Positions 26,696-52,857 of a stretch of 64,000 nt of DNA are shown here, in pieces. The position numbers were made by a program, and so were the translations under genes. The notes under the pieces were generated by a model, which saw only the letters and a program-made list of their open reading frames with translations, made no database searches and was not told the origin of the DNA. The DNA comes from Desulfocapsaceae bacterium (lineage in GTDB: Bacteria > Desulfobacterota > Desulfobulbia > Desulfobulbales > Desulfocapsaceae): NCBI GenBank assembly GCA_963675545.2, contig CAXXRX010000001.1:96326-160325 (forward strand), read 5' to 3'. Numbering within the stretch: the first letter of the stretch is position 1; each line of letters starts with the position of its first letter.

Positions 26696-26780
26696 TTATC
26701 ATTGAGAAACAGGAATAGTATTAACGAACGAGAAAAGTGCAGAACTAAATTCTTAGAATTGGCAGTGTTAACGCTGCGGA

Positions 26781-31648: not shown

Positions 31649-31708
31649 AGTGCGGGCATCATGCCTGGAAAAGCAAGGCTGTTTAAGGACTTCCAGCGTC
31701 TCTGGGCC

Positions 31709-35183: not shown

Positions 35184-37049
35184 CTAGAAAAGGAAATCCT
35201 TCAACTGCAGCAGGGTATACCAGGGTTTGTGAAAGACAATCCAGCCCAGGGGCCGGGAACCGGCCTGGATAACTGCCTGTCCACGCATGCCCGGCCTGAG
35301 CCTGCCGTCCGGGTTGTCGAACTCAAGCTCGGCAATAAAAACATTGCGATTCTCCCTGATCTCTGATTTCGGGTTGATTTTTTTTATGGATCCAACCCAG
35401 GAACTATCGGGATAGGCGTCGAATCTCACCCGCACATCCATGTCCGGCTGCAGGTGGGTAATATGGTTTTCGCGCACCGCAAGTTCAACAATCATTACTT
35501 CCAGTGGTGACACTTCAAACAGGCTCTGGCCTTTGCTCACAGGGCTGCCGAGTGCCCGCTTGAGGTCGCCGGAGAGCACGATGCCGTCCACCGGGCTCTG
35601 CAGGATGAGGTGCTTTTGCTGCTCGAGCAGCAGGTTGAGCTGCTCGTCGAGCCGCTGTTCCTCGAGCCTGGCAATCTGGGCTCCGGCGGTATTGCCGAGT
35701 GCCAGGTGATGGTCCCGCATTTTCCGGGCCTTGTTGCGTTCTGCCGTTACTGCCGCCCGGGTACTTTCATTCTCCCTGCCATCGAGAATGGCGAGCGTAT
35801 CACCGTTCTGAACCTTGTCTCCGGGCTGCACCAGGACGTCCTGGAGAATTCCATCGAATCTGGCAACAACGAACCTGGTTGAAACCGGCTGTACCAGGCT
35901 CGGCGTACTCAGGCGAAAGGGCAGCGGCACCATGCCGATTGCTCCCAGCAGCGCAATGGCTGCAGGTACCAGCAAATATCTGCTGAACCGGCGTGTCTTG
36001 CCCGCTCCCCGATTTTTCAGCGCAGTGGAAACAGAGCTGCCTCCTTTTTCCTGCACAACGCCAAGGCAGGAAGCCAGCATGCTCCGGCCTGCAGCAAGGG
36101 ATGAAATAAGCCCCTGCCGCTTTCCCGGCTTCTGCCAGAGAAAAATGAGTGCACCTGTCATGGTGCCCTGCGAGTCGCTGAGCGAGAGGCCGACTGCCTG
36201 GGAGTTTGAGCTGCTGTTCAGCAGCTCCTGGAACAGAGCTGAGCTCTGTTCCAGTGCCTCGCTGATTGCCGGAAAAACGAGAATGTCCTGCTGGATGGTG
36301 CATTCATTGAGGGCTTTGGTGTAGATCCTTGATTGTTCGCTGCGCTGATCCACCGAGGTGAGGTGGGAAAGCGAACTGAGAATCATGCGTCCGGAAGCTG
36401 TCATCGTGCCGATTGCCACCTGCTCGCAGTCAGCCCAGGAACGCAGTCGGGCATTGAGCTGCAGCAGGGCTTCCGGCTGGTTACGGTATTCAAGGCTCGT
36501 GGCGACAAGGGCAACCAGCTGCCGGAACAGGTCCCTGTCACTGCCGGCAGGGGGGTTGTCTTTTTCGAGAAACGTACAGAGCAGGGAGGTCAGCAGCTGA
36601 ATGATCACCAGAAAAGATTCGATAGGCTGATCACCCGTGAGAATGATAAAAGACAGACAACCGGTATGTTGGTTATCATATCCTGCCGGGCAGGAAATCA
36701 GCCGGGCGGCGGGAATATTTTCAAGGGTGCCTAATTGTGCCTGTCCACTGTTCACGGCACGCTGGGCATGTTGCTGCATGCAGTCGACTAGATCTGAAGA
36801 CCAGGAGAGGGCCTGCCTGGAGAGCAGTTGCTGTTCGACTGCAAGATCACCGTTCTGCTCCCGGCTAAAATAGATGACACCTGCGGCATTGACCAGGCCG
36901 ACTGCTGCCTGCAGGAAGTCCAGGATAAGCCGATGGCGAGTCTCCGCCTGGTCGCCAAGTTGCTGGAACTGGCTGGAAAGCCGGTGAATGTCCGGGCGTT
37001 TTATGACACCACTGCCCGGAGTGGCGCGGTTTGATAGAATATCGCTCAA
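35184..37049 (-). CDS. HlyD-type membrane-fusion protein with a ~350-aa cytoplasmic N-terminal domain of unknown family
   Basis: Single TM (YLLVPAAIALLGAIGMVPLPF) at about aa 355-375, then 'ARFDGILQDVLVQPGDKVQNGDTLAILD', a coiled coil and 'SPVDGIVLSG'. TTG start at 37049 with no obvious SD. Its stop lies 6 bp before the next gene. Confidence 0.7.
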   Translation of the reverse strand: MSDILSNRATPGSGVIKRPDIHRLSSQFQQLGDQAETRHRLILDFLQAAVGLVNAAGVIYFSREQNGDLAVEQQLLSRQALSWSSDLVDCMQQHAQRAVNSGQAQLGTLENIPAARLISCPAGYDNQHTGCLSFIILTGDQPIESFLVIIQLLTSLLCTFLEKDNPPAGSDRDLFRQLVALVATSLEYRNQPEALLQLNARLRSWADCEQVAIGTMTASGRMILSSLSHLTSVDQRSEQSRIYTKALNECTIQQDILVFPAISEALEQSSALFQELLNSSSNSQAVGLSLSDSQGTMTGALIFLWQKPGKRQGLISSLAAGRSMLASCLGVVQEKGGSSVSTALKNRGAGKTRRFSRYLLVPAAIALLGAIGMVPLPFRLSTPSLVQPVSTRFVVARFDGILQDVLVQPGDKVQNGDTLAILDGRENESTRAAVTAERNKARKMRDHHLALGNTAGAQIARLEEQRLDEQLNLLLEQQKHLILQSPVDGIVLSGDLKRALGSPVSKGQSLFEVSPLEVMIVELAVRENHITHLQPDMDVRVRFDAYPDSSWVGSIKKINPKSEIRENRNVFIAELEFDNPDGRLRPGMRGQAVIQAGSRPLGWIVFHKPWYTLLQLKDFLF

Positions 37050-38232: not shown

Positions 38233-40056
38233 TCAGTTCGATCGTACCTGCATGTCCGGCAGCGTTTGCCCATCTTCAGGTTTAACCTCTGCAAAGGTGA
38301 TATTGTTGTTGCTGACCAGGATTCCCATGGCCCGATAAAGGTTGAAAAGCGAGTAATTGTAGGTCAGCTCACTTTTGGCAAACAGTTCCTCTGAATCGCT
38401 CAGCCGTTCGCCGGCGTCCATCAGTCGGTAGAGCACATCTCCATAGGGTTCGTTGTTGGCCAGCAGGTAATCGACCTGCGAGAGCAGGGCCTTGACCTCT
38501 TCATCATCAGAGATCATGATCTGGTAACTCTGTACCATGGAACGGTAATTTTTTTCAAGCTCCCGATATGAAACCTGGGTTTCGAGCAGCACGTTTTCAA
38601 CGGTGGTGTCAAGCTGGTGCAGGAGCTGCCGGATCTCCAGCTTTTTTCTGGTGTTACGGGCCTTGGCGCCATTGTTGCCCAGCGGGTACTCAAAGCGCAG
38701 TCCCGCCACATAGCTGGGACCGCCTTCATCAAACTGGTCGGAGTAGGCTGTGCCATACTCGTAATCTCCCTCAAGCCCTTTGACATAGGTCTGGAAAAAC
38801 AGATCCAGGTCCGGCATCAGTTCATTTTTGGAACGGTCCAGACGCAGGTTGGCAGACTGGATATGCTTGACGGCCTGGGCTACTTCAGGGCGATTGTTTA
38901 AGGTTGTCTGCAGAGCCTGGTCAAAAACGACCTCAAACGGCTTGTTGCTGGGCATCTGGCTGGTGACCATCTCCAGTCCTGAAGCATTTAACAACTCCGG
39001 ATCGTTGACCAGAGCGCGGATGCGGGACTGGGCGTTGAGCATGGCGTATTCCGCCTGCATCGCGGCGAGCTTGTGGGCATTGACCAGGGACCTGGAGCGT
39101 GCCAGCAGGCTGGGCGGCACATCGACGCCGCTGCGCTGCTGCATCTGTTTGAAAATGTCGAGGCTTTTACTGGCAAGCTGTTTTTTCTGCAGCAGCAGGG
39201 AGCGTTCCAGGTAAAGCCCCCAATAGGCGCGGCTCACCTCAAGCAGATGGCTCTCCACACTGCGCCGCAGTTCCTCACCGGCGATTGAATAATCAATTCC
39301 GGCAAGATCAATAGGTGAGCGGTTGTAACCAATGCCGAAGCGCTTCAGCAGTGGCTGGCTGATGGTCAGGTAGGTGCCTGCCCTGGCCTGTTCTTCCGGG
39401 TTGAAATAAATGGAATTGGTGTCCATGTCGCCGATATTCTGCTTCAGCTCGACCTCTGTTCCTGTCAGGAATTTTTTACGCACACCGTATTCCAGATTCC
39501 TGGCATCTTCTTCATAGCGCAGCGGCCCGCCGGTCTGCAGGTCATCCCCCACCGGTTCATCGAGATCAGAGAGACGTCCTTCGGCGAACAGCCTGAAATC
39601 GTATGGTCCTTGCGCTTCCTGGATTGTTGTCTGGCGAATAAGCGGCAGGTCGCTGAAAACCTTGATCTGGGATGAGTGTTTCAGGGCACGACTGAACAGC
39701 GAGGTAACGTTTGTTGAGATTTCCGCTACGCTCTGATTGATCCGACCGTTGACACGTGTCTGCCACCAGGGAGAAAAATTTTCCGGGATGGAACCGGAGT
39801 CGATTTCCAATTGGTCTTCCGAGGTGCCGGAAAAAACACTGGTGTAGCCCTTTTCAGACTGTTCCATCTGCTCGATCAGCATCGAGTATCTCTGGAACAG
39901 CCTGGTCTTCAGATCATCATAATCGAGCTCGCTTTGCTGTGCAGCCTCTACAACCAGCTCATAGTCTGATGCCGCCTTGTCCTGGGCGTGGAGGGCGTTT
40001 ATCCAGGAAAGACTGCCGACAACTGCAAGCGCAATGAATATGGATCGTGTTTTCAT
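38233..40056 (-). CDS. TolC-family outer membrane efflux/secretion protein (unusually long, 607 aa)
   Basis: Signal peptide (IALAVVGSLSWINALHA). Two OEP-type repeats, e.g. 'ALQTTLNNRPEVAQAVKHIQSANLRLDRSKNELMPDLDLF'. Confidence 0.85.
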   Translation of the reverse strand: MKTRSIFIALAVVGSLSWINALHAQDKAASDYELVVEAAQQSELDYDDLKTRLFQRYSMLIEQMEQSEKGYTSVFSGTSEDQLEIDSGSIPENFSPWWQTRVNGRINQSVAEISTNVTSLFSRALKHSSQIKVFSDLPLIRQTTIQEAQGPYDFRLFAEGRLSDLDEPVGDDLQTGGPLRYEEDARNLEYGVRKKFLTGTEVELKQNIGDMDTNSIYFNPEEQARAGTYLTISQPLLKRFGIGYNRSPIDLAGIDYSIAGEELRRSVESHLLEVSRAYWGLYLERSLLLQKKQLASKSLDIFKQMQQRSGVDVPPSLLARSRSLVNAHKLAAMQAEYAMLNAQSRIRALVNDPELLNASGLEMVTSQMPSNKPFEVVFDQALQTTLNNRPEVAQAVKHIQSANLRLDRSKNELMPDLDLFFQTYVKGLEGDYEYGTAYSDQFDEGGPSYVAGLRFEYPLGNNGAKARNTRKKLEIRQLLHQLDTTVENVLLETQVSYRELEKNYRSMVQSYQIMISDDEEVKALLSQVDYLLANNEPYGDVLYRLMDAGERLSDSEELFAKSELTYNYSLFNLYRAMGILVSNNNITFAEVKPEDGQTLPDMQVRSN

Positions 40057-40083: not shown

Positions 40084-43000
40084 TCAGTGACTGTTACGTG
40101 CCGGCTGGGTCGATGGGGCGTCAAACTCATAGCCCTTGAAACCGTCCCACCTTATATCAAAGGTCGAGAGATTGCTCTGGTGCATGGACTGCAACACCGT
40201 AGAAGGCAGATAGGCAAATACCGTCTCCACGTCCAGGCTGGTGCTTGAATAGACCATGCTGCTGAAGCTTGGGTAAAAATAGGTGCGCATGTTGAAGAAA
40301 CCGGCACTGCTCGCATTATAGCTCGATATCGTCTGGCCGATTTCCATGTGATGCGGCAGCTCGAACATGATGGTTTCAGGCAGGTCGGCAAGCCAGTTGC
40401 CGGCCGTGTCGGCCATGACGCTGCGGTAGCCGACCTGGTTGCCCATGGCGTCGTGGAGAACAAGCTCAATCGTGGTTCCCGGCTCTGCCAGGCCGGAATA
40501 AATCGGCGACACCGGTAGCGGCGGCAGCAACCACGGTTGCTCCTCGAAGCGGGTAAAGATATCGCCCTGGTCGCCAAACTGGCGATACATGAAGAAGGCA
40601 TCGGCCACAAGACCCTGCGCAGGAGGTTCAACCGGGCCCGGAGATGGCGGGCGGGACGGCGGTGTTATGGGTACTACCGGTTCGCCCGGGTCCGGTGGCC
40701 GGGGACCTGGAAATGGTGAGGGGCCGAAATATCCGAAATCCCTGCTCAGGTCGTTTTCACCGGCAGCAAGCGTCACTTGAGACTGGTTGTCAAGTATTGC
40801 ATCGGGGTCTCCTGTCTGGGTCAGGTCAGGCGGCAATGTCGTGGTGTCAACGTAGACGGTGTACTGCCCAGCCGTGAGGTTGTCGAAGAGGTAGGTCCCG
40901 GTTGCATCCGTTGTGGTCGTCACCGCTTCTATGGTACCGTCGTTGTCAAAATCTCCCTGCAGGGTTACCCTCACTCCGGAAAGCCCGCGTTCACCTGAAC
41001 TCTGGTAGCCGTTGCCGTCCGCATCAAAATAGATGGTATCGCCGATGGAGCCGGTGCCGGTATAGCCGAAATCCTGGTCGTTATTGACGGCTCCCGGGCC
41101 CAGGTTAAGCGTGGTGCTGTTGTCAGGCGTGCCATCGGGGTCACCGCTCGGCCTGACATCAGCGGGCAGGCTGGCCGGGTCCACGCTGATTGTGTATTCA
41201 CCGGCCGGCAAATTATCAAAACTGTAGGTTCCGGCGGCATCAGTTGCCACTGTTGCTGTGTAGTCGGGAGTTCCGTCTCCATCAAAATCAACACTGATGG
41301 TGACGTCAATACCCGGCATGCCGTTTTCGCCGGCATCCTGGGTTCCGTCACCATCGGTATCAAAATAGATCGTGTCACCGATGACGCCGCTGCCGGTGTA
41401 GCCGAAATCCTGCTCGTCATTGTCTTCACCTGCTCCAAGCGATACCACGGTGGTACTGTTATTGACTCCGTCAGGATCCTCCGTCTGGCTCATTCCGCCG
41501 GGCAGGGTTGACTGGTCAACAGTTATGGTATAATCACCTGCCGGCAGATTATCGAAGCTGTAGGTCCCGCTTGCATCAGTTGTCGTGGTGACCGTCTCCG
41601 TTGTGCCGTCACCATCAATATCACCGCTCAGAGAGACGGTGACGCCCGGTAGACCGACATCACTGCCATCCTGGGTGCCGTTATTGTTCTCATCAAAATA
41701 GATGGTATCACCGATGGAACCGGTGGATGCCCCTGTATTATGGTAGCCAAAATCCTGATCGAGATTTGTTCCTCCGGCAGGAAGGTTGACTGTCGATGTT
41801 GAGTCCGGGTTAGAATCAGGGTCGGCAGTGAGTACGTACCCGTCTGGTATATCAGATGTATCCACTGAAACAACGTAGGTTCCGCCAGGCAGATTCTCGA
41901 AAAGATAGTTCCCGGAAGCATCGGTGGTGTCGGTCTGGGTATAGTCCACTGTTCCGTCGCCGTCAAAATCGAAAGAGAGGGTTACGTCAATGCCGGGCAA
42001 TCCGGGTTCCCCTCCATCCTGGATGCCATCGTTGATCACATCATTCCAGATGGTATCGCCGATCGAACCGCTTCCCTGGTACCCGAAATCCTGGTCAAGA
42101 TTGTCTTCACCATCGGCTAGTATAACCGAAGCCTGGTTTGCGATACCGTCGTTGTCGGGATCTGCTGTCTGGTTCATACCGGCAGGCAGCGAAGCGGGGT
42201 CGACTGTAATGACAAAGCTTCCGGCCGGCAGATTGTCAAACAGGTAATTGCCGTTGGCATCGGTTGTGGTGGTGACGCTGTCGGGTGTACCGTCGCCGTC
42301 TAGATCACCTGTCAGCGTAACCGAAACGCCGGGCAGTCCAGTCTCGGTACCATTCTGATCACCACTGCCGTCACTGTCAAAGAAGATAGTATCACCGATG
42401 GAGCCGGTCCCGCTGTTGTAGCCGAAATCCTGGTCAAGGTTGTTTTCACCGGCTGTGAGACCGAGCATGGTCATATTGTCGTTTGTGCCGTCGGGATCAC
42501 CGCTCTGACTCAGGCCGGCAGGCAGGGTTAAGGGGTCAACGATGAGGGTGTAATCTCCGTCCGGCAGGTTGTTAAAAAGATAGGTACCGTTGCTGTCGGT
42601 TGTAACGGTCTGCGTGTAATCAGGAGTACCATCGCTGTCGATATCAGCAGTGATAGTAATATCCACACCAGCTATGCCGGTTTCGCTGCCGTTTTGTAAA
42701 CCATCGCCGTCCGTGTCATTCCAGATCGTGTCACCGATGGAACCGGTCCCGGTGTAGCCGAAATCCTGCAGCAGGTTGTTCTGGGCACCTCCCAGAACAA
42801 GGGTTGAGGTGTTGTCAAGGGCGCTGTCGGGATCACTGCTCTGGATAATGCCCAGGGGCAGCGACGCCGGGTCAACGGTCACCGTGTATCCGCCGGCCGG
42901 CAGGTTTTCAAAGAGATAGTTGCCATCTGCGTCGGTCGTGTCGACATAGGTGTAGTCCGCCACACCATCGCCGTCGAGGTCGAGGTCGATGGTGACCTGG

Positions 43001-46000
43001 ACTCCGTTGATACCACCTTCATTGGTTTCCTGTGTTCCGTTATTATTGCCGTCAAAGAAAATGGTGTCACCGATGGAGCCGGTCCCGTTGTAGCCGAAAT
43101 CCTGGTCGAGATTGTCTTCGTCAGCTGCCAGCGTAAGTATCGCTTGATTTGCAGTTCCGCCGTCAGGATCCTGCGTCGGGCTCAGCCCGGCTGGCAGTGT
43201 TGCCGGGTTGATGATAATCGTGTAGTCACCGCCGACGATATTATCGAAAAGATACATGCCGTTGCTGTCGGTCGTAGTTGTTACCGTGTCCGCTGTCCCA
43301 TCACCGTCGATGTCGCCGGTCAGGGTTACCGTGACTCCAGAGAGTCCGGGTTCAGTGCCGTTTTGCCCGCCGCTGCCGTCCGCGTCAAAGTAGATCGTGT
43401 CGCCGATGGAGCCTGTGGATTGTCCACTATCCCAGTAGCCGAAATCCTGGTCCAGGTTGGTCCCGCCTGCAGGCAGGTTGACGGTTGTGGTCGAATCGGG
43501 GTTAGCATCGGGGTCTGCGGTGAGGACATATCCGTCAGGGATATCGTCGGTATCGATACTGATGGTATAGGTTCCCTCGGGCAGGTTGCCGAAACTGTAG
43601 GTACCGCTGCCATTTGTTGTGGTTGTTGCCGTATAGTCCGGAGTCCCGTCGCCGTCAAAATCAACGGACAGGGTTACGTCGACGCCGGAAAGTCCTGTTT
43701 CACCACCATTCTGGGTGCCGTCACCGTCAACATCGTCCCAGATAGTGTCACCGATGATACCGGTTCCGGTGTAGCCGAAATCTTCATCAAGCTCATCGAT
43801 ACCGCCTGCCAGAATAACCGTGGAGGTGTTGTCGTTGCCGCCGTCAGGATCGGCAGACGGGCTCATGCCGCCGGGCAGATCCGCCGGATCGACCGTTACC
43901 GTGTAGGTGCCGTCCCGAAGATTTTCGAAGAGATACCTGCCGTCGGCATCGGTTGTCGTGGTAAGCACATCCTCGATACCGTCGTTATTCACATCACCGG
44001 TCAGGGTAACGGTAATCCCGGGAATACCTGCATCTCCGGGTGTTTCACCTCCGGAGTTGTCGGCATCGAAAAAGATCGTATCGCCGATGGAGCCTGCGCC
44101 GGTGTAGCCGAAGTCGACGTTGTTGTTGTTTTCGCCGTCGGCCAGTGCAATCGAGGCATTGTCCGGAGTCCCGAGACCGTCGAGATCAAAGGTCTGCTCC
44201 ATGCCGGCCGGTGTTGCATCAATTGTTACCGTATAGTTTCCAGGCAGCAGATTCTCGAAGCTGTAGTTGCCGTTTTCATCAGTCGTAGTGGTAAGGGAGA
44301 TATCACCAAGATTGTCACCGGTAATATCGCCGGTCAGGGTCAGCGTTACGCCACCAAGGCCCTGTTCGCCGGCATCGAATACACCGTCAGCATCCGCGTC
44401 GTACCAGACGGTATCGCCGATTGAGCCGGTGCCTTGATTAAAATAACCAAAGTCCGCATCGTCTCTGGCTTCAGCGATATCAAGTGCGATTCCGCTGATG
44501 ACATGCTCGGTGTCAATTCCGTCCAAATCGTATGTTGCTATTGTGCCGTCCGGAAGATTCACCGGATCTACGGTTACCGTGTAATTGTCAAAGGCCGGCA
44601 GGTTTTCAAACAGGTAGTAACCATTTTCATCGGTTGTGTCTGTCCAGGTAAAGTCCGACGTGCCGTCACCGTCAGTGTCAGCGCTCAGTGTCACCAGGAT
44701 ATCGGTAATACCGGTATCGCCAGGGGTTTCACTGCCAGACTGATCGGTGTCAAAGAACACGGTATCGCCGATGCTGCTGGTTGTGATAACGGTAAAAACA
44801 GTCTCACCAACATCTCTGTCGGCAAAGATGCCGTCATCAACGGGTGAATCGATTCCGTCGTCTTCATCGTATACACGCTCATCGGGGTCTGATCCATCCT
44901 GGCCTGACCAGTCGGCATCTACACTGTTTTCATGAGGGGTGGGTAGAAATATGGCATCCAGTACGGTTACCGTATATTCAATCTCGACATATTCTCCGAC
45001 CGGTATATCCCAGTTGCCGACGATGGAAACCGTGCCATCATCGTTGTCAGTCATGGTCGGGTCAGCTACTGCGCCAAAACTGCTGGAGACAGAGGAGTAA
45101 CTAACAAAGCTGGTACCCGGCGCCAGAGTATCCAGCGCATTGACTTCATAGGCAGTGGAATTGCCGCCATTGGTGAACCGTACTGTATAGGTGAGTGTTT
45201 CATTCCACTGGGCATCCGTGCCGCTATCGAGGGAGTCTGCCACGCTTTTTTCGGTTTCGATCCACGGCTCGACAACGCTCAGGCTGTCAGTATCATCGTC
45301 TGTTACCTCGTCGCCGTCAACATTGTCATAGCTCAGGGTGACCGTATTGCCGAGAGCGGCGCTGTCAAAATTGCCGGAAACATTGGCTACCCGTGCCGTA
45401 TAGGAAATGATCAGCGGATCGTCGGTATCAACGATGGTATCGCCAAGGTTCCAGGTTATGGTGACCGCGGTGCTGCCGTCATTGGTGCCGAAGGTCGGAT
45501 CCTGGCTCAATTCGGTGGAAAAACTGCCGCTTGCCGTGCTGATTGTTGCATCATCGTTAAAAACCAGGCCGGCGATCAAAACATCTTCAATCACCAGGTT
45601 GTTGATGGTTCCTTCCGGAGCGTCAATCGTCAGGGTATAGGTGATCGTATCACCAATGGTGGCTGTGCTGGTATCACCGTCACTTTTATCGATGGTTACG
45701 CCGGGGATGGTGAATTCCGCGGTATCAACATCACGGTCTGCATTGACGCCGCCGTCGACCGGCGAGTCCACACCGTCGTTTTCATCATAGACCCGTTCGT
45801 TCGCTTCACCCGGATCGTTGTTGTCAAGGCTTGACCAGTCTGCATCCACGGTGTTTGTGTGGCTGCCGTCAACGATTGCTGCGTTGGTCACGGTGGCCGT
45901 ATAGACCAGAACCAGCTCGGCGCCCTGGGCAAGATCCCAGGCGTCATCGGCAAAGGTGATGACGGAGTTGTCACCATTCGGGGTTGCGGTGTTCAGATCG

Positions 46001-49000
46001 AAGTTGGTGTCGACGCCATCGATCCGGGCGCTCTGGATAGCTCCGAACGTAGTCCCCTGGGCCAGGGTATCGTTGAAATTGACCTCGTAGGCCGTGGCGT
46101 TGCCGCCATTGTAAAGGGTCACCGTATAGGTGACGGTATCTCCAGCTTCCACGCCGGATGTCGGAGAGACATCTTTGTTCGTTTCGATCCACGGCTCGAC
46201 AACGCTCAGGCTGTCAGTATCATCGTCTGTTACCTCGTCGCCGTCAACATTGTCATAGCTCAGGGTGACCGTATTGCCGAGAGCGGTGCTGTCAAAATTG
46301 CCGGAAACATTGGCTACCCGTGCCGTATAGGAAATGATCAATGGATCGTCGGTATCAACGATGGTATCGCCAAGGTTCCAGGTTATGGTGACGGTGGCGC
46401 TGCCGTCATTGGTGCCGAAGGTCGGATCCTGGCTCAATTCGGTGGAAAAACTGCCGCTTGCCGTGCTGATTGTTGCATCATCGTTAAAAACCAGGCCGGC
46501 GATCAAAACATCTTCAATCACCAGGTTGTTGATGGTTCCTTCCGGTGCGTCGATCGTCAGGGTATAGGTGATCGTATCACCGATGGTGGCACTTGTTATA
46601 CCGCCGTCGCTCTTATCGATGGTCACGCCGGGGATGGTGAATTCCACAGTATCGATATCACGGCCAGCATTTAGGCCGTCGTCCACCGGTGAATCGACGC
46701 CGTCGTCTTCGTCATAGACCCGTTCGTTTGCTTCTCCCGGGTCGTTGTTGTCAAGACTGGACCAGTCGGCATCCACCGTGTTGGTATGGCTGCCGTCAAC
46801 AACAGCAGCGTTGGTAACGGTGGCCGTATAGACCAGGACCAGTTCAGCACCCGGAGCAAGGTCCCAGGCGTCATCGGCAAAGGTGATGACGGAGCCGTCA
46901 CCATTTGGGGTTGCGGTATTCAGATCGAAGTTGGTGTCGACGCCATCGATCCGGGCACTCTGGATAGCTCCGAACGCAGTCCCCTGGGCCAGGGTATCGT
47001 TGAAATTGACCTCGTAGGCCGTGGCGTTGCCGCCATTGTAAAGGGTCACCGTATAGGTGACTGTATCTCCAGCTTCCACGCCGGATGTCGGAGAGACATC
47101 TTTGTTCGTTTCGATCCATGGCTCGACAACGCTCAGGCTGTCACTATCATCGTCTGTTACCTCGTCGCCGTCAACATTGTCATAGCTCAGGGTGACCGTG
47201 TTGCCGAGAGCGGCGCTGTCAAAATTGCCGGAAACATTGGCTACCCGTGCCGTATAGGAAATGATCAGCGGATCGTCGGTATCAACGATGGTATCGCCAA
47301 GGTTCCAGGTTATGGTGACCGCGGTGCTGCCGTCATTGGTGCCGAAGGTCGGATCCTGGCTCAATTCGGTGGAAAAACTGCCGCTTGCCGTGCTGATTGT
47401 TGCATCATCGTTAAAAACCAGGCCGGCGATCAAAACATCTTCAATCACCAGGTTGTTGATGGTTCCTTCCGGAGCGTCAATCGTCAGGGTATAGGTGATC
47501 GTATCACCAATGGTGGCTGTGCTGGTATCACCGTCACTTTTATCGATGGTTACGCCGGGGATGGTGAATTCCGCGGTATCAACATCACGGTCTGCATTGA
47601 CGCCGCCGTCGACCGGCGAGTCCACACCGTCGTTTTCATCATAGACCCGTTCGTTCGCTTCACCCGGATCGTTGTTGTCAAGGCTTGACCAGTCTGCATC
47701 CACGGTGTTTGTGTGGCTGCCGTCAACGATTGCTGCGTTGGTCACGGTGGCCGTATAGACCAGAACCAGCTCGGCGCCCTGGGCAAGATCCCAGGCGTCA
47801 TCGGCAAAGGTGATGACGGAGTTGTCACCATTCGGGGTTGCGGTGTTCAGATCGAAGTTGGTGTCGACGCCATCGATCCGGGCGCTCTGGATAGCTCCGA
47901 ACGTAGTCCCCTGGGCCAGGGTATCGTTGAAATTGACCTCGTAGGCCGTGGCGTTGCCGCCATTGTAAAGGGTCACCGTATAGGTGACGGTATCTCCAGC
48001 TTCCACGCCGGATGTCGGAGAGACATCTTTGTTCGTTTCGATCCATGGCTCTATGACGGTAACGACAGGATCGATCGGGTCATCCACTCTGATGGGATCC
48101 CCGCCGACAGGGTTGTCATAGACCATGTAGGTGTCGTTGGTAAGCGTCGACCCGTCGTAATTGCCGGTACCAGTGAGGACATCAAGAACCAGGGCCCTGA
48201 TCCCGATGACAAAGGCGTCGTTTTCAAAACCGCCCGGGTCATTGTCAGGAGCTATCGAAACAGTGCCGAAACCAAATGATACGGCTTCACCATTTGCTGT
48301 ACCCCCGGTGATTGCCGCCGGAGGCAGGACCGGGCCGGAAAAATCCGCTGCGAGCAATCCGGATGGGTCGTTGCCTATACCGGCCTGAGTGAAGAGCTGG
48401 TAGGAGCCGTCAATATAGCTCATGCCGGCAGGTAAATCGTCGGTGACAATCAGGTTGGCCGTGTCGCCTTCGGGTAGAGTCACCAGTATATAATATTGTA
48501 CTTCCTCACCGATGGTGTAGCTCAGCGGATCTGGATCGACCTTGTCAATTGTTCCCCCTACCGTGACTATAGCGGAGGCATCAGTGATATAGTCGTCGGG
48601 ATCACCCGTGGCTGGGGTCCCAGTGCGCTCACCAGGATCGCCGTCTTCCGGCAGGCTGGTCCAGTCAATCGTGGCGGTGTTGGTCAGGTTTTCCCCGGCC
48701 TGCGGGTCGGTGGCAAGATGGGCGGTCAGGGTGATGGTATAGGTGTCGCCGAGCTCAAAACTATCCCAGAAACCCGAAAGGGTATTACCGCTGACCGTGA
48801 CGGCGTCAGATACTCCGGAAAGGGAGCCGGTGCCGGCCTGACTGGTAATGGTAACCGTGTCGTAACCTGCCGGCAGAGTGTCGGCAAGGGTGACGTCAAA
48901 GGCATCGGCAGTACTTATTTCGTTGTCGATGGCGGTCTCATTATCATGATTAATCTCGATCGTGAAGGTGACGGTATCGTCTTCGTCGGGGGTCGGGTTG

Positions 49001-52000
49001 TCGACGCTCTTGCTGACCAGCAGCTTCGGTTCGACAATCGTTACGCTTTCACCTTCGCTGACGCTATGATTATCGGAGTTGCCATCGGTCCAACTCCACA
49101 CCGCATTATTGGACAGGTTGTCGTTGTTCTGGTTGGCGCCGATATTTCTGACCAGTGCGGTGTAGGTCAGGGTCAGGGTTTCAGCCACACCGTTGTCGCG
49201 GTTCTGATTATCTAACGTGTTAAAATCGACAAAAAAGGACAGGCCGTCAGCGGCGATGCTGCCGTTTGCAGCAAGAAAAGCAAGATTGTTCGGATCACTT
49301 AGATTGCTCAGATCATAAATGGTCCCGACTGACGAGGTAAAATCAGTTGATGCTGTGGTCAGTGAGTCAAGTGAGATGATCTCCAGGCCGCCACTGGGGT
49401 CGAGATCATCAGCGAGCATGACATTCGTTGCCTGGCCCTCAGGAAGCGTGATTGCTACCGTGTAGGTGATCGTTTCCCCGATCGTGACATTCGGGTTATC
49501 GGTATGGGGCTGGCTGGTAGTATCAATTGCCTTGTCGACAAGGACATCAGGTATCTGTGCGCTCGCCTGATCTGTCAGGCCGCCGGGAATATGATTGCTG
49601 GCACCGTTGTCGCCGCCGTAGTTCTCAAGCGTTGCTGTGTTGAGCAGGGTCTGGCTGGGTCCGACATTGTCGGCCAGCAGCAGATCATAGGTAATCACCA
49701 TGATATTGGTCCCTACTGTCGGGTCGTAACCCGCAAGAGCACCGTCATCGACTGTGTCATTAAGGATCAGTCCGGTGCCGAACAGATCACCGCTGTAGGA
49801 AAGAGCGGTGCCATTGCCGTCGGTTGCCTGCAGGCTGAGGGCGACGAAGGTATAACCTGTCGGCAGCACATCGCTTATGGTGACGTCGAAAGCATCTGAA
49901 TGGCCGGTATTTTCGACGACAATGGCGACAGTGATGGTATCGCCGGCGTCGATGTTGGAGATATCGGTATCGATATTATGAGAATCCAGCCAGTCGGAGG
50001 TAATGTTCTGTTCGAGTCGACCTGCGCTACCCGGCTCGGTGAAATAGTTGTCAACAGTGGTGTTGCCGCTGTAGATATCGGCCTCATTGTCGCTCTCGAC
50101 AATACCCTTGGTAATCTCCAGTACCGGCTGGTCCAGGACGATCTGAAATATATCGTCAGTATTCGAGTCGACCAGTGGCGTGCCATTTTCGGTACCGCGC
50201 ACCTGGTTTGCCAGGTAGAGTCCGTCGGCAAATGGTTCACTGTTGACTGTTACGGTGAAAAGAATATCGATATAGGTCTGCTGAGGGGCGATATCATCGT
50301 TTTCACCGTAGACAAAGCTGAGCCTGTTTTCGCCATTTTCCGTGAACGTCTCAAGAAAGATCGGTTCGAGTGGAAAGACAGTGGAAAACGTGTCGGTGGG
50401 ACCCAGGCTCCATTCTCCTGCCCCGGGTAAACCGGCTACGGGATCACTTCCCTCGGTGAATTCATCAGCATCGAAAACCGGCAGCGGCAGGTAGTCATCA
50501 AGGCGAAACGACTCGAATTCACTGGTCGGCATCAGGTACTGCAGCTGGTAGGTAACGGTATCCCCTGGCTGCATATGCAGCCGGCCTTGGGCATCGGTGA
50601 AGCTGCTGAGATCGGTAAAACCGTTTATTGCATAGACATCTTTCTGGATCAGCTCACCGACCTCGATCTGAATTGCCGTGGCGGAATCATCAGTGTCGGT
50701 GTCGAAGCCTGTATCCGTGAGAGTACCGCTGCCGTTATCTCCATAAATCTGGCCGCTGATGTCAACATTGTTGGTAAGGAAATCACCCTGGTCAACGGAC
50801 TCATCTCCCGGGCCGGAACTGTCGCCGGTACTAATGTAGCTGTCCTTGATCAGGGCATAATAGGTGATCGTGCCCCCGGCCGGAGTGCCTGAAACAGCGC
50901 CGTCGTAAAGATCACCCTGAAGGATACCGTCCAGTCCACCTGCTACGGCCGAAATATCGAAGCTGAGTGAAGTGTCATCATCAGCCTGGGAACTGCTGGT
51001 CAGGTCGGTGCCGACAGTCCAGCCACCTGTCCATGAACCTGTTTCATCCTGAATGTCATAGATCGGAGCATAGGCCCCTGTGGTCTGGAGCTCGAGTCCG
51101 TCTGCCAGAATATCGGTGACAACAATGTCGCCGAAATTGAAATAATCTGAAATCTGAAACTCAACGGTATATTCGAGGATGTCGCCAGGGTTGTAGCCGC
51201 CGATGATACCGGTATCACTGCCCGGAAACGGTGCAAAGTCGACACCTTTCTGTACGGCAATCGCCTCCGCCTGGAAAATCTCATCGATATTCGGTGTCGG
51301 CGAGATGGTGCCGTCTCCATAGACCTCGGCATTGACAACGAGGCTCACCGAAGAATCATCGGGGTCTGTCGGGGTCCAGTTACCTTCCACCCGGGCGTTG
51401 TTGATGACTTCGCGGTCTTCAGTGCCGCCGATTACATCATCGCCGGTAGCGGGGTCGAGTATCGGTGTAACCCCGTCGGCGTAGAACTCCGGCACATAAA
51501 AATCGAACGTGATGACGACATCCTGAGCTGTAGCACCTCCAGTCACCGGGTTGTCCAATTCAACCTCAAGGACGCCGTCGGTGAAGATACCGCCTGCTGC
51601 ATTGGGCGAGGTGACGGTAAAAGACTGCCCGGTGCTGACTGCAACAGTGGCGTCGCCCAGATAATAAATTTCGTTGGGTAAGAGTTCGGTAAGCTGCAGG
51701 TTGTTGATGGTCTGGCCGTCGGCGATATCGATGGTGATCTGATATTGGTGTGGATAATTGGGTCCTGTGGCGGTTTCCTGTTCCGGGCCGAGATAAACCT
51801 TTTCAAAGCGGATAACTTCGGGGCGGAAGGTCTGGGTGTCGACCAGCGTCGGGCCGATCGGCGGATCAGTCGGTGGATCGCCAGTTGGATCATTGAGTGC
51901 GGTTTCGCCATAGCGGTAGCCGTTGTAGACCCGGATATCAAAATCCTCAGCGGCCCCGCCACTACTGTCTACCTGCCGGAATTCATCAATATGTGCGGTT

Positions 52001-52857
52001 ACCTGGACTTCGGCCGGTGGCTGGTCCGGGGTAAACGAGCCGAACGGCATCTCTATGGTGACATAGGTGTCACCCGGGGTGCCGGTGATGATAGTTGGGG
52101 CCCCGGTGGTTCCGTTAAAGTCGTAGGGGTGGATGATTTCACCGTTTGAATCAAAGGTCTGGACCGTGACCTCGAGCGGAGAACCGAGATAGGTGGCGGA
52201 GTCGGGGACGTAGGTGACCCCGTCTCCGTCTCCGTCATCCCCGCTGCTGGGCATATACAGGTCGATATAGGGTCCGTAGAGTGTCGTTCCTGAAGTATTG
52301 TTAAGTGTGACGGTAAAGGTGAAGTCCTCACCGATCATCGGATCGATTGCTTCTACTGCTGCGGGTTCGCCTTCTTGATCGCCTTCCCTGCTTTCGCTGG
52401 AGTCATTGTTCGAGTCTGCAAGAGTAGCAGGCTCCGGGGTATCATCGTCGGGAGCGTCGGCCTCGTCTTGAAGCTGCTGCTCTGTGTCTGTTTCAAGAGG
52501 AGCTTCCCCGTTATCAGCGGATTCACCGCTGTCCGGTTGTGAAGCTGCCGCGACTATTTCCTGGCCTTCTTCAGCTGCAGTGGGGGGAATTGTAGCAGCG
52601 GGCTCATCACCGGTCTCTTCCGGTACGCTTTCTGGTTGGCTTTCCTGAACACTGCCGTTGGTCTCGGTATCCTGGGGCGCGGCGGAGATATCAGGCTGCG
52701 GGAGTATAACGGGCTGGGTCGGGTTCAGATCACCTGCCGGGTCAACAGCGGTGTCGAACGGCTCGACGGGATCCAGTGCCGCGACTGGGTTGGCATCAAG
52801 AAAGATACGTTCTTCCAGTTGTTCGAGAAGCAAATATTTTTTAAGAGATTTTTTCAT
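40084..52857 (-). CDS. giant (4257 aa) secreted/surface repeat protein: LEPR-XLL-like N-terminus, acidic disordered region, DUF11-type beta-domains, 12 SdrD-B/Cna-B-like Ca-binding domains, Pro-rich linker, C-terminal domain
   Basis: Single uninterrupted 12,774-nt ORF. The N-terminus 'MKKSLKKYLLLEQLEERIFLDANPV' has no hydrophobic Sec h-region. Repeated 'TYT(V/L)T..N.G...A' DUF11-like strands, then 12 x 'GSIGDTI(F/W/Y).D.D..G......G..GV.VTL..D.DGDGT......TTD..G.Y.F.NLP.G.Y.V.VD...LP'. Confidence 0.9.
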   Translation of the reverse strand: MKKSLKKYLLLEQLEERIFLDANPVAALDPVEPFDTAVDPAGDLNPTQPVILPQPDISAAPQDTETNGSVQESQPESVPEETGDEPAATIPPTAAEEGQEIVAAASQPDSGESADNGEAPLETDTEQQLQDEADAPDDDTPEPATLADSNNDSSESREGDQEGEPAAVEAIDPMIGEDFTFTVTLNNTSGTTLYGPYIDLYMPSSGDDGDGDGVTYVPDSATYLGSPLEVTVQTFDSNGEIIHPYDFNGTTGAPTIITGTPGDTYVTIEMPFGSFTPDQPPAEVQVTAHIDEFRQVDSSGGAAEDFDIRVYNGYRYGETALNDPTGDPPTDPPIGPTLVDTQTFRPEVIRFEKVYLGPEQETATGPNYPHQYQITIDIADGQTINNLQLTELLPNEIYYLGDATVAVSTGQSFTVTSPNAAGGIFTDGVLEVELDNPVTGGATAQDVVITFDFYVPEFYADGVTPILDPATGDDVIGGTEDREVINNARVEGNWTPTDPDDSSVSLVVNAEVYGDGTISPTPNIDEIFQAEAIAVQKGVDFAPFPGSDTGIIGGYNPGDILEYTVEFQISDYFNFGDIVVTDILADGLELQTTGAYAPIYDIQDETGSWTGGWTVGTDLTSSSQADDDTSLSFDISAVAGGLDGILQGDLYDGAVSGTPAGGTITYYALIKDSYISTGDSSGPGDESVDQGDFLTNNVDISGQIYGDNGSGTLTDTGFDTDTDDSATAIQIEVGELIQKDVYAINGFTDLSSFTDAQGRLHMQPGDTVTYQLQYLMPTSEFESFRLDDYLPLPVFDADEFTEGSDPVAGLPGAGEWSLGPTDTFSTVFPLEPIFLETFTENGENRLSFVYGENDDIAPQQTYIDILFTVTVNSEPFADGLYLANQVRGTENGTPLVDSNTDDIFQIVLDQPVLEITKGIVESDNEADIYSGNTTVDNYFTEPGSAGRLEQNITSDWLDSHNIDTDISNIDAGDTITVAIVVENTGHSDAFDVTISDVLPTGYTFVALSLQATDGNGTALSYSGDLFGTGLILNDTVDDGALAGYDPTVGTNIMVITYDLLLADNVGPSQTLLNTATLENYGGDNGASNHIPGGLTDQASAQIPDVLVDKAIDTTSQPHTDNPNVTIGETITYTVAITLPEGQATNVMLADDLDPSGGLEIISLDSLTTASTDFTSSVGTIYDLSNLSDPNNLAFLAANGSIAADGLSFFVDFNTLDNQNRDNGVAETLTLTYTALVRNIGANQNNDNLSNNAVWSWTDGNSDNHSVSEGESVTIVEPKLLVSKSVDNPTPDEDDTVTFTIEINHDNETAIDNEISTADAFDVTLADTLPAGYDTVTITSQAGTGSLSGVSDAVTVSGNTLSGFWDSFELGDTYTITLTAHLATDPQAGENLTNTATIDWTSLPEDGDPGERTGTPATGDPDDYITDASAIVTVGGTIDKVDPDPLSYTIGEEVQYYILVTLPEGDTANLIVTDDLPAGMSYIDGSYQLFTQAGIGNDPSGLLAADFSGPVLPPAAITGGTANGEAVSFGFGTVSIAPDNDPGGFENDAFVIGIRALVLDVLTGTGNYDGSTLTNDTYMVYDNPVGGDPIRVDDPIDPVVTVIEPWIETNKDVSPTSGVEAGDTVTYTVTLYNGGNATAYEVNFNDTLAQGTTFGAIQSARIDGVDTNFDLNTATPNGDNSVITFADDAWDLAQGAELVLVYTATVTNAAIVDGSHTNTVDADWSSLDNNDPGEANERVYDENDGVDSPVDGGVNADRDVDTAEFTIPGVTIDKSDGDTSTATIGDTITYTLTIDAPEGTINNLVIEDVLIAGLVFNDDATISTASGSFSTELSQDPTFGTNDGSTAVTITWNLGDTIVDTDDPLIISYTARVANVSGNFDSAALGNTVTLSYDNVDGDEVTDDDSDSLSVVEPWIETNKDVSPTSGVEAGDTVTYTVTLYNGGNATAYEVNFNDTLAQGTAFGAIQSARIDGVDTNFDLNTATPNGDGSVITFADDAWDLAPGAELVLVYTATVTNAAVVDGSHTNTVDADWSSLDNNDPGEANERVYDEDDGVDSPVDDGLNAGRDIDTVEFTIPGVTIDKSDGGITSATIGDTITYTLTIDAPEGTINNLVIEDVLIAGLVFNDDATISTASGSFSTELSQDPTFGTNDGSATVTITWNLGDTIVDTDDPLIISYTARVANVSGNFDSTALGNTVTLSYDNVDGDEVTDDDTDSLSVVEPWIETNKDVSPTSGVEAGDTVTYTVTLYNGGNATAYEVNFNDTLAQGTTFGAIQSARIDGVDTNFDLNTATPNGDNSVITFADDAWDLAQGAELVLVYTATVTNAAIVDGSHTNTVDADWSSLDNNDPGEANERVYDENDGVDSPVDGGVNADRDVDTAEFTIPGVTIDKSDGDTSTATIGDTITYTLTIDAPEGTINNLVIEDVLIAGLVFNDDATISTASGSFSTELSQDPTFGTNDGSTAVTITWNLGDTIVDTDDPLIISYTARVANVSGNFDSAALGNTVTLSYDNVDGDEVTDDDTDSLSVVEPWIETEKSVADSLDSGTDAQWNETLTYTVRFTNGGNSTAYEVNALDTLAPGTSFVSYSSVSSSFGAVADPTMTDNDDGTVSIVGNWDIPVGEYVEIEYTVTVLDAIFLPTPHENSVDADWSGQDGSDPDERVYDEDDGIDSPVDDGIFADRDVGETVFTVITTSSIGDTVFFDTDQSGSETPGDTGITDILVTLSADTDGDGTSDFTWTDTTDENGYYLFENLPAFDNYTVTVDPVNLPDGTIATYDLDGIDTEHVISGIALDIAEARDDADFGYFNQGTGSIGDTVWYDADADGVFDAGEQGLGGVTLTLTGDITGDNLGDISLTTTTDENGNYSFENLLPGNYTVTIDATPAGMEQTFDLDGLGTPDNASIALADGENNNNVDFGYTGAGSIGDTIFFDADNSGGETPGDAGIPGITVTLTGDVNNDGIEDVLTTTTDADGRYLFENLRDGTYTVTVDPADLPGGMSPSADPDGGNDNTSTVILAGGIDELDEDFGYTGTGIIGDTIWDDVDGDGTQNGGETGLSGVDVTLSVDFDGDGTPDYTATTTTNGSGTYSFGNLPEGTYTISIDTDDIPDGYVLTADPDANPDSTTTVNLPAGGTNLDQDFGYWDSGQSTGSIGDTIYFDADGSGGQNGTEPGLSGVTVTLTGDIDGDGTADTVTTTTDSNGMYLFDNIVGGDYTIIINPATLPAGLSPTQDPDGGTANQAILTLAADEDNLDQDFGYNGTGSIGDTIFFDGNNNGTQETNEGGINGVQVTIDLDLDGDGVADYTYVDTTDADGNYLFENLPAGGYTVTVDPASLPLGIIQSSDPDSALDNTSTLVLGGAQNNLLQDFGYTGTGSIGDTIWNDTDGDGLQNGSETGIAGVDITITADIDSDGTPDYTQTVTTDSNGTYLFNNLPDGDYTLIVDPLTLPAGLSQSGDPDGTNDNMTMLGLTAGENNLDQDFGYNSGTGSIGDTIFFDSDGSGDQNGTETGLPGVSVTLTGDLDGDGTPDSVTTTTDANGNYLFDNLPAGSFVITVDPASLPAGMNQTADPDNDGIANQASVILADGEDNLDQDFGYQGSGSIGDTIWNDVINDGIQDGGEPGLPGIDVTLSFDFDGDGTVDYTQTDTTDASGNYLFENLPGGTYVVSVDTSDIPDGYVLTADPDSNPDSTSTVNLPAGGTNLDQDFGYHNTGASTGSIGDTIYFDENNNGTQDGSDVGLPGVTVSLSGDIDGDGTTETVTTTTDASGTYSFDNLPAGDYTITVDQSTLPGGMSQTEDPDGVNNSTTVVSLGAGEDNDEQDFGYTGSGVIGDTIYFDTDGDGTQDAGENGMPGIDVTISVDFDGDGTPDYTATVATDAAGTYSFDNLPAGEYTISVDPASLPADVRPSGDPDGTPDNSTTLNLGPGAVNNDQDFGYTGTGSIGDTIYFDADGNGYQSSGERGLSGVRVTLQGDFDNDGTIEAVTTTTDATGTYLFDNLTAGQYTVYVDTTTLPPDLTQTGDPDAILDNQSQVTLAAGENDLSRDFGYFGPSPFPGPRPPDPGEPVVPITPPSRPPSPGPVEPPAQGLVADAFFMYRQFGDQGDIFTRFEEQPWLLPPLPVSPIYSGLAEPGTTIELVLHDAMGNQVGYRSVMADTAGNWLADLPETIMFELPHHMEIGQTISSYNASSAGFFNMRTYFYPSFSSMVYSSTSLDVETVFAYLPSTVLQSMHQSNLSTFDIRWDGFKGYEFDAPSTQPARNSH
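40723..44778 (-). repeat. array of 12 diverged ~113-aa SdrD-B/Cna-B-like domain repeats (coding)
   Basis: Counted 12 'IGDT(I/V)(F/W/Y)' repeat starts between 'SSIGDTVFFDTD' (44778) and the final 'DFGYFG' (40723). Each carries DxDxDG-type loops. Confidence 0.8.
45271..48051 (-). repeat. three tandem 927-bp (309-aa) near-identical coding repeats inside the giant gene
   Basis: The 'EPWIETNKD' unit boundaries recur at about 48051, 47124 and 46197, with a diverged fourth boundary ('EPWIETEKS') at about 45270. Antisense track ORFs repeat at exactly 927-bp steps (45859/46786/47713). Confidence 0.9.
52753..52857 (-). other. LEPR-XLL-like N-terminal motif of the giant protein (aa 1-35)
   Basis: 'YLLLEQLEERIFLDANPVAA' compared with the family-defining 'LEPR.LL(S/D)A' pattern; here LE-E-R-I-F-L, with Pro replaced by Glu. 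It sits at the extreme N-terminus of a very large repetitive protein, as in that family. Confidence 0.6.

Follow-up and report, generated by a model that had tools for sequence, protein, structure and literature searches.

A giant Cys-free fiber protein of a Desulfocapsaceae bacterium as candidate cargo of the ABC-less export module encoded downstream of its gene

By which route could a protein of 445 kDa, whose N-terminus does not resemble a Sec signal peptide, leave a diderm cell, and what could hold it at the surface once it is outside? The question is raised by the first gene of a six-gene operon found in a stretch of 64,000 nucleotides from a Desulfocapsaceae bacterium (assembly GCA_963675545.2, contig CAXXRX010000001.1, positions 96,326 to 160,325; hereafter the window, whose first letter is position 1). 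This giant open reading frame (ORF) starts with ATG and runs through 4257 codons in a single frame without interruption, and the genes of the operon lie on one strand, separated by gaps of 6–27 nt or overlapping (Table 1). The overall best explanation, which we consider probable as a whole, is that the giant protein is a surface fiber and the cargo of an export module encoded by the five downstream genes, to which it would be targeted by its N-terminus and at which it would be held by its C-terminus; taken on its own, the link between cargo and machine is highly probable.

The domain architecture can be laid out with near certainty. From N- to C-terminus it comprises a short motif, an acidic linker with 37 Asp and Glu against a single Lys or Arg (and 18 Pro), a conserved head (domains D0–D3), a stalk of DUF11-type domains that includes three units of 309 amino acids, twelve SdrD-B domains, a linker of which half the residues are Pro and a distinct C-terminal domain. 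This is essentially the layout that the initial annotation had read from the letters alone, and its further statements about the acidic region, the Pro-rich linker and the richness in Asp (13.2%), Thr (12.7%) and Gly (11.0%) stand as well, while its “almost no Cys” can be sharpened, since the protein has no Cys at all. The predicted isoelectric point is ~4.05 and there are only 21 Lys in total. Judged from these domains, the protein is a cell-surface fiber of the CLIPPER/SdrD-B fibrillar class that carries unnamed conserved modules at both ends; the plus-strand ORFs within its gene are taken as by-products of the repeat composition.

By their domain content, the five genes that follow are the ABC-less “type I-related” module described by Kamneva, Poudel and Ward (PLoS One 2015, PMC4452313), in which a secondary SecA_DEAD protein is found with Peptidase_M50/HlyD, HlyD and GAF-HlyD proteins and sometimes an OEP, and no ATP-binding cassette (ABC) transporter. 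These authors called the biological role of the module “completely unknown” and suggested the M50 protein as a possible pore of the inner membrane (PMC4452313). A text search of their paper for a specific cargo, adhesins, DUF11 or DUF3467-related terms found no mention of a cargo, and no link between LEPR-XLL proteins (see below) and the module was found in a literature search whose coverage does not extend to all journals. The initial annotation had missed the amino acid triads of the stalk and also the module, which tells more about the locus than any other of its features.

The association between giant gene and module is not peculiar to this genome. The same gene order follows orthologous giant genes in six independent contigs (L001–L006), and a genome-wide scan with a profile of the C-terminal domain, built from a 10-sequence alignment, yielded 57 loci spanning Desulfobulbales, Thiotrichales, Methylococcaceae, Alphaproteobacteria, Verrucomicrobiota, Planctomycetota and Myxococcaceae. 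An M50-type gene and/or a SecA paralogue was found in 34 of the 41 loci having at least 7.5 kb of downstream sequence, and a TolC-like gene in 32 of them; the module lies 3′ of the gene encoding the C-terminal domain in Desulfobulbales, Methylococcaceae, other Pseudomonadota, Alphaproteobacteria and Verrucomicrobiota, and in no locus does it contain a same-strand ABC ATPase. Loci in which no M50/SecA module is recognizable within 10 kb downstream include L035 and L036 (Thiotrichales BB2), L037 (Thiomargarita), L052, L057 and L059, and in L038 and L057 a same-strand ABC ATPase gene is found downstream instead; in module-less loci the family may use alternative or distant machinery.

Ten loci, belonging to Verrucomicrobiota, Ca. 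Uabimicrobium (Planctomycetota), an alphaproteobacterium and a Pseudomonadota metagenome-assembled genome (MAG), encode the SecA paralogue, a protein of 619–684 amino acids, within the module or next to it. Its DEAD, preprotein-binding and P-loop domains are present, the C-terminal third is missing, and its score reaches the cutoff of no SecA or SecA2 model; similarly truncated SecA domains are embedded in the giant proteins of Omnitrophota (West-Roberts et al. 2023). A tblastn search detected no such paralogue in the window, nor in the Desulfobulbales loci, which leaves room for a copy elsewhere in the genome.

A hint as to how the fiber could enter this route comes from its N-terminus. The first 35 residues, in which a sorting motif had been noticed, do contain one and it can be named: it appears to be of the LEPR-XLL type, a domain name of the NCBI to which, to our knowledge, no function has been assigned. 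The motif fits the family consensus LLLExLE[DE]RIL[LF]DAxP (84 sequences), including the invariant Arg, and a relative from a Desulfobulbaceae (P0354) bears the NCBI name “LEPR-XLL domain-containing protein”. In Desulfomarina profundi LLLEQLEERIFLDANP is preserved identically, whereas the acidic linker behind it is divergent. The maximum hydropathy over 10 residues is 1.21 at the N-terminus of the giant protein, the median of 44 family members being 1.15, as compared with 2.64 in the signal peptide of the neighboring TolC-like protein; thus, the N-terminus appears to be a LEPR-XLL-type motif devoid of a hydrophobic core and not a Sec signal peptide.

Of 86 homologues of residues 1–906, ~35 combine the motif with low hydropathy and ~34, which come from Chloroflexota, Actinomycetota and other groups, start with a hydrophobic signal peptide of the classical kind. 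No homologue has both, and either is found just ahead of D0, so that the motif seems to occupy the place that a Sec signal peptide has in homologues. Those signal-peptide homologues whose sequences seem complete (P0297, P0317, P0327 and P0329) end with an LPXTG sortase signal; therefore, in those relatives the C-terminus is cell-proximal and D0–D3 represent the distal head. All in all, the motif is probably an export signal.

An informative case is offered by plasmid pCSC3H3 of Thalassospira marina (L064, NZ_CP024200, 5498–24463). Here a protein of 4033 amino acids, a “LEPR-XLL domain-containing protein” in RefSeq, has the motif, no Cys and 27 RTX-like nonapeptides, and lacks the C-terminal domain, D0–D3, SdrD-B and CLIPPER domains; its gene is followed, in this order, by genes for DUF3467, HlyD, the M50-adaptor fusion, an adaptor and TolC. 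This case suggests that it is the motif, and not the C-terminal domain, that tracks the module. Just downstream, on the other strand, lies nrfB, the gene of a c-di-GMP-activated glycosyltransferase.

Table 1. Positions of the giant gene, of the segments of its product and of the module genes in the window; the last row refers to other loci (aa, residues)
Feature	Position	Strand	Remark
Giant ORF	40084..52857	-	4257 aa, open frame
LEPR-XLL-type motif LLLEQLEERIFLDANP, aa 9-24	52786..52833	-	NF012209 score, family consensus
Acidic Ala/Glu/Pro/Asp-rich linker, aa 36-175	52333..52752	-	composition; varies among relatives
Conserved N-terminal module D0-D3, aa 176-906	50140..52332	-	same domain order across family; 86 homologues
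CLIPPER/DUF11-like isopeptide domains D4-D7 (predicted), aa 907-1598	48064..50139	-	domain-by-domain scan and alignment
Three 309-aa (927-nt) units = D8-D13, two CLIPPER domains each, aa 1599-2525	45283..48063	-	
CLIPPER-like domain D14, aa 2526-2692	44782..45282	-	Pfam and alignment
Twelve SdrD_B (Cna-B-type) domains, aa 2695-4042	40732..44775	-	PF17210, DxDxDG-type loops
Pro-rich linker, aa 4046-4079	40621..40722	-	50% Pro
Conserved C-terminal domain, aa 4080-4257	40087..40620	-	Ig-like sandwich, then aromatic-rich tail
TolC-like outer-membrane factor, 607 aa, Sec signal peptide	38233..40056	-	27 nt after giant gene
Short periplasmic adaptor (membrane fusion protein), ~300 aa	37386..38294	-	TIGR01730 110.8 vs cutoff 94.9 bits
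DUF3467 protein, 100 aa	37065..37367	-	PF11950 28.1 vs cutoff 25 bits
Long adaptor, 621 aa: N-terminal ~355 aa, transmembrane aa 358-376, HlyD part	35184..37049	-	
M50/site-2-protease-like polytopic protein fused to HlyD adaptor, 719 aa	33018..35177	-	
SecA paralogue	L040:12745-14604, L044:10448-12427, L049:12504-14558; also L043, L046, L047, L050, L051, L053, L054		

The opposite end of the giant protein had been described as a unique C-terminal domain, possibly serving for cell anchoring or retention. It is not unique: a word-indexed search returned 8 relatives, and a profile search run exhaustively against 1.84 billion representative proteins returned 464 (263 of them at E ≤ 1e-10), all members of a family without a name, in proteins of 2.5–7.3 thousand residues (the longest having 7305), nearly always at the extreme C-terminus. 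The last 212 residues match no Pfam or NCBIfam family at E ≤ 1 and contain none of the known C-terminal sorting signals (LPXTG, PEP-CTERM, GlyGly-CTERM or the C-terminal domain of type IX secretion), and a search of plasmids with the domain gave no match. An AlphaFold model based on 7 sequences had a predicted local distance difference test (pLDDT) score of 43 and was unusable; with 39 sequences a five-strand Ig-like sandwich was obtained at pLDDT ~87–92, in keeping with the Ig-like segment noticed initially, and behind it an aromatic-rich tail whose prediction is poor (overall pLDDT 69.6). Indirect support for a retention module comes from the LPXTG-ended relatives, homology to which makes the C-terminal domain and the Pro-rich linker the best candidates for an anchor; that the domain itself is the anchor is nevertheless a tentative assignment, with somewhat less than even chances.

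Motif and C-terminal domain delimit a two-ended family. In 40 of 86 proteins of at least 900 residues having the C-terminal domain (45 with a looser pattern) the motif is found within the first 50 residues, with no match elsewhere in the 257,580 residues of those proteins; the proteins without the motif begin inside repeats and look N-terminally truncated, and all seven complete genes of the fetched loci encode both ends. After the motif, the order D0-D1-D2-D3 is kept across the family, whereas the middle region ranges from 0 to 26 SdrD-B and from 0 to 34 CLIPPER-like domains, with 0–8 Cys per protein, and distant members have CLIPPER domains alone. The family plan, as it emerges from these alignments, is a motif, a variable acidic linker, D0–D3, a variable stalk, a linker and a C-terminal domain of ~150–180 residues, a plan common to giant proteins of diderms that make up a widespread family still without a name. 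Within the window there is neither a second LEPR motif nor a second gene for a C-terminal domain.

The sequence of the stalk suggests that its domains are internally cross-linked. Both families on which the initial layout relied, DUF11 and SdrD_B, are found in Pfam and NCBIfam searches; the former (PF01345) matches 7 stretches (185.1 bits, cutoff 24.6), TIGR01451 matches 10 (198.5 bits, cutoff 24) and TIGR04226, the model of an isopeptide-forming domain, matches 7 (249.8 bits, cutoff 30). Scanned domain by domain, D4–D14 each match DUF11, whereas D0–D3 have no Pfam family, their sole Pfam-level match being a weak CshA_repeat (E = 0.054); the description of residues ~176–2690 as DUF11-type and other Ig-like domains is therefore matched by Pfam for the stalk, not for residues 176–906. 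Of the 16 Lys found from residue 8 to residue 4240, 15 belong to strand A, the first of a domain, with one in each of D1–D14 and a second one in D6, and cutting the protein at these strand-A Lys sets the boundaries of D1–D14 (residues 343–2692). Alignment of the fourteen shows three invariant positions, namely the Lys, an acidic residue in “xDxL” (Asp, or Glu in the case of D1) and the Asn of “LxNx”, so that D1–D3 and the eleven stalk domains D4–D14 form 14 consecutive CLIPPER-like domains, followed by the 12 SdrD-B. In the CLIPPER structure 9IFR (Acinetobacter silvestris B9T28_05395) an isopeptide bond joins Lys715 and Asn806 with Asp748 as the catalyst (PMC12617251); its Lys and the Asp region of its “NDTL” align with the domains described here, weakly (E = 0.1) and with a presumed correspondence of the catalytic Asp. 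Isopeptide bonds thus very likely form in D1–D14.

As to the SdrD-B half, PF17210 matches 12 stretches of the giant protein (E = 3.5e-181), and an iterative profile built within the protein places 12 units (each i-Evalue ≤ 1e-40) where twelve SdrD-B/Cna-B-like domains had been seen by eye at residues 2694–4045, the ends now being moved to 2695 and 4042. Each unit has 1–3 loops of the DxDxDG type, and the region matches the sequence of the SdrD structure 10ps_A (3.2e-17). It contains no Lys and is therefore stabilized by Ca2+, not by cross-links; the notion of an extracellular, Ca-stabilized and Cys-free fiber of Ig-like domains is accordingly supported. Assignment to the MSCRAMM proteins SdrC/SdrD was rejected, the scores with NF012181 (355.8 bits) and NF000535 (294.8 bits) being far from the respective cutoffs of 2500 and 1700 and LPXTG being absent.

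What could the individual module proteins contribute? The M50-adaptor fusion has intact catalytic motifs, HExxH at residue 198 and NxxPxxxxDG at residue 292, and ~7 hydrophobic segments, and matches HlyD_D23, Peptidase_M50 (weakly) and, at 1.6e-43, NF041824. The latter is the daptide leader protease family, the M50 domain being homologous to intramembrane proteases that cleave the leaders of ribosomally synthesized and post-translationally modified peptides (RiPPs). The DUF3467 protein has neither a transmembrane segment nor a signal peptide and is the most conserved of the module genes (91% identity to L007, compared to 62% for the short adaptor); it is also present in the module versions of Verrucomicrobia, Methylococcaceae and T. 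marina and may act in the cytoplasm as a chaperone or as a factor for targeting. Sequence searches of the PDB with these two proteins gave no useful match. An M50-adaptor locus of Phyllobacterium was set aside as a different system (23% identity, non-LEPR neighbor). In two loci (L005:5773-7245 and L042:6902-8353) the gene of an MltF-like lytic transglycosylase (SBP_bac_3 and SLT domains) is located between those of the TolC-like protein and the short adaptor, an enzyme that would fit the assembly of a machine through the peptidoglycan.

Taken together, these elements can be ordered in a sequence of events in which the giant protein would be carried as cargo by the module. In place of a Sec signal peptide, the N-terminal motif would target the unfolded chain to the module; its removal by the intramembrane M50 protease, suggested by analogy with RiPP leader removal and with the processing of signal peptides by site-2 proteases, is a conceivable accompaniment to which we give clearly less than an even chance. 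The unfolded chain would then be threaded, N-terminus first, through the conduit formed by adaptor and TolC-like protein without folding in the periplasm, a premise with which the complete lack of Cys is consistent. As a motor, the truncated SecA paralogue would be available within the module in other phyla, in this lineage from outside the operon if at all. Outside the cell the SdrD-B domains would fold upon binding Ca2+ and the 14 CLIPPER-like domains would become locked by Lys–Asn isopeptide bonds, and the Pro-rich linker and the C-terminal domain, the last to exit, would stay at the channel and hold the fiber at the cell, so that the C-terminal domain would play the part played by the LPXTG anchors in the monoderm homologues. 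The generalization that LEPR-XLL giants are the cargo of a distinct ABC-less trans-envelope pathway, with the motif as signal and the C-terminal domain as non-covalent anchor, is put forward tentatively, its chances being close to but below even.

Several points weigh against this scheme. The match to NF012209 (LEPR-XLL), a model of just 24 positions, covers residues 9–30 with 16.8 bits (E = 0.0038) and is therefore 0.2 bits short of the NCBI cutoff of 17. Neither an ATPase nor a known inner-membrane protein channel is encoded in the operon or in any Desulfobulbales locus; seven of the 41 loci having the C-terminal domain are without the module within 10 kb, and the T. marina cargo carries RTX-like repeats, elsewhere a mark of C-terminus-first secretion. 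The model of the C-terminal domain is confident over its first ~70 residues alone and a Foldseek search of the PDB with this model gave no significant neighbor (best E 0.014). The term “adhesin”, used initially, fits the architecture from which it derives, but no ligand-binding domain was identified in the giant protein. Finally, both the mechanism and the direction of transport are deduced from gene neighborhood and sequence.

Could the protein instead be a LapA/SiiE-type adhesin, exported C-terminus first via the TolC-like channel by an ABC transporter encoded elsewhere, with the C-terminal domain as secretion signal and the N-terminal motif and D0–D3 as retention plug? This alternative survives best, though we regard it as unlikely. 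The TolC-like and HlyD-family genes that adjoin the giant gene, the high acidity and zero Cys of its product and the Ca-binding repeats that directly precede a conserved domain at the extreme C-terminus are what one would expect from type I secretion, and LEPR-XLL giants with C-terminal RTX regions do exist (PMC10868602), the T. marina cargo being another. On the other hand, the giant protein itself has no RTX nonapeptide (GGxGxDxUx) and no HemolysinCabind match, the ABC genes of the window are exclusively those of importers (the upstream ones of an amino-acid importer), and nowhere is an ABC exporter part of the module; where the module does encode a motor, this is a paralogue of SecA, by which chains are driven N-terminus first. 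The polarity of the homologues points in the same direction, since the motif stands exactly where they have a cleavable Sec signal peptide and those signal-peptide homologues are anchored by the C-terminus via LPXTG. The T. marina cargo lacks the C-terminal domain, which therefore cannot be the universal signal of the module.

That the adjacency is coincidental, the downstream genes serving an unrelated efflux or the RiPP-type export and maturation of peptides and the giant protein leaving the cell otherwise, is very improbable. The idea draws on the fact that the best named relative of the M50 domain is the daptide leader protease, on the name “putative peptide zinc metalloprotease” that the Joint Genome Institute (JGI) gives to the M50-adaptor family, and on distant M50-only homologues that adjoin PqqD-type RiPP genes on plasmids. 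It is contradicted by the succession of giant gene and module in the 34 loci mentioned above, which represent at least four lineages of phylum or class level, by the operon-like gaps between the genes and by the lack of a precursor peptide or modification enzyme in the module; in T. marina the pairing is repeated with an unrelated LEPR-XLL cargo, and a giant protein without a Sec-type signal needs a dedicated route in any case.

The integrity of the gene deserves consideration because of its repeats. The three near-identical units of 309 amino acids reported initially are confirmed as 927-nt units covering residues 1599–2525 within a repeat tract at 45239–48066 of the window; by repeat search and period-927 self-comparison, units 1 and 3 are 99.0% identical in nucleotide sequence and unit 2 is 92–93% identical to the others, which makes the copy number sensitive to assembly. 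Tandem Repeats Finder reported nothing for the tract because the period exceeds 500 nt. The orthologues of close relatives, whose lengths the initial annotation had proposed to compare, range from 2469 to 3710 residues, a spread expected from repeat expansion and contraction. In the closest relatives (L007:8714-10453, L008:8279-10417, L011:7553-10453) and in D. profundi (L001:2764-10366; 148 + 2264 + 121 residues) the orthologue is split by in-frame stops, which may reflect indel errors of long reads or real decay. Still, that the ORF is an assembly artefact or a pseudogene, as its repeats and these interruptions might invite one to think, or that it encodes an S-layer protein instead of a fiber, is hardly credible, given that the 12.8-kb frame is entirely open here, that intact orthologues of 2.5–3.5 thousand residues having both termini occur in isolates and MAGs (L021, L022, L031, L034, L040, L041, L044), that neither SLH nor any other S-layer anchoring or lattice domain is found among the Pfam and NCBIfam matches, which leaves the “S-layer-like” of the initial annotation unsupported, and that isopeptide and Cna-B-type domains arranged in tandem are a typical feature of fibrillar stalks (PMC12617251).

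The surroundings of the operon can be described briefly. A class-V aminotransferase/cysteine-desulfurase-like gene (31709-32851, minus strand) begins 166 nt after the M50-adaptor gene and elsewhere lies outside the conserved module. Just past the end of the operon the G+C content steps from 0.40–0.48 (~20000–32000) to ~0.55 (32000–64000); the low-GC block contains the gene of a B12-binding radical SAM protein (28208-29482) as well as two ORFs without a Pfam match (26781-27824 and 30022-30549). At ~18 kb from the operon a PAS-GGDEF-EAL protein, a type involved in c-di-GMP turnover, is encoded on the plus strand (12761-15085); giant adhesins are often under c-di-GMP control. An Rfam scan of the window did not find RNA families, and promoter and terminator scans remained at chance level.

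What would follow if the proposed scheme were true? Two orphans, the LEPR-XLL motif and the module of Kamneva et al., would be joined in a testable triplet of signal, cargo and machine, and the export of proteins of up to ~7,300 residues without either an ABC transporter or a classical signal peptide would be explained for diderms of Desulfobacterota, Verrucomicrobiota, Planctomycetota and Pseudomonadota; this would amount, in effect, to an unrecognized secretion system for giant adhesins of diderm bacteria. The value of this locus is to offer an orphan module, ABC-less and TolC-dependent, a candidate cargo, along with a candidate signal and a candidate anchor. In addition, two modules for which neither Pfam nor NCBIfam has a model, the D0–D3 head and the C-terminal domain, are newly delineated, and the Cys-free stalk with its 14 predicted self-locking isopeptide domains could become an engineering scaffold. 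The Desulfobulbales are sulfur cyclers of sediments and relatives of the cable bacteria, and with such a lifestyle a surface fiber of 445 kDa is likely to matter for attachment or cell–cell contact.

How does this presumptive system compare with those already known? With the accessory Sec system (SecA2/SecY2) the likeness is conceptual, namely an atypical N-terminus bearing a motif and, in the SecA-bearing loci, the gene of a SecA paralogue beside that of a giant adhesin; SecY2, Asp1-3, a glycosyltransferase and the KxYKxGKxW motif are missing, and the SecA paralogue is truncated, falls under every SecA2 cutoff and is absent from the window. With the B-repeats of the staphylococcal MSCRAMMs SdrD and SdrC the giant protein shares the SdrD_B domains with their Ca-binding DxDxDG loops, twelve in number, but it has no A-domain, SD repeat or LPXTG and its host is a diderm.

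The CLIPPER (DUF11) fibrillar adhesins, such as the 9IFR protein, are likewise long, acidic and repetitive surface proteins with tandem CnaA-like domains bearing the Lys/Asp/Asn triad. However, disulfides are found in ~58% of the isopeptide domains of Pseudomonadota in the CLIPPER survey (PMC12617251), whereas the giant protein is without any Cys; furthermore, it has neither their Sec signal peptide nor their OmpA-like anchor, and possesses instead other terminal modules and a dedicated export operon 3′ of its gene. The type I secretion adhesins LapA, SiiE and MpIBP are also giant, acidic, Cys-poor and Ca-stiffened fibers with conserved termini and a variable extender of repeats, whose genes adjoin TolC-like and HlyD genes, and for both retention at the outer-membrane channel is proposed. 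The giant protein differs in having no RTX repeats, no ABC transporter and no LapG/LapD found in its operon, and its predicted polarity is opposite, the signal being N-terminal and the retention C-terminal.

The closest correspondence is with the module of Kamneva et al., with which the operon shares the joint occurrence of a fusion between an M50-like polytopic protein and HlyD, a long and a short HlyD and an OEP/TolC-like gene, the lack of an ABC transporter and a patchy phylogenetic spread suggesting horizontal transfer. The SecA paralogue present in their locus is missing from this operon and from the Desulfobulbales loci, and the long adaptor corresponds to their GAF-HlyD protein but has no detectable GAF domain (residues 1–380; Pfam, E ≤ 1). 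What the loci described here add to their description is the giant LEPR-XLL protein whose gene consistently precedes the module.

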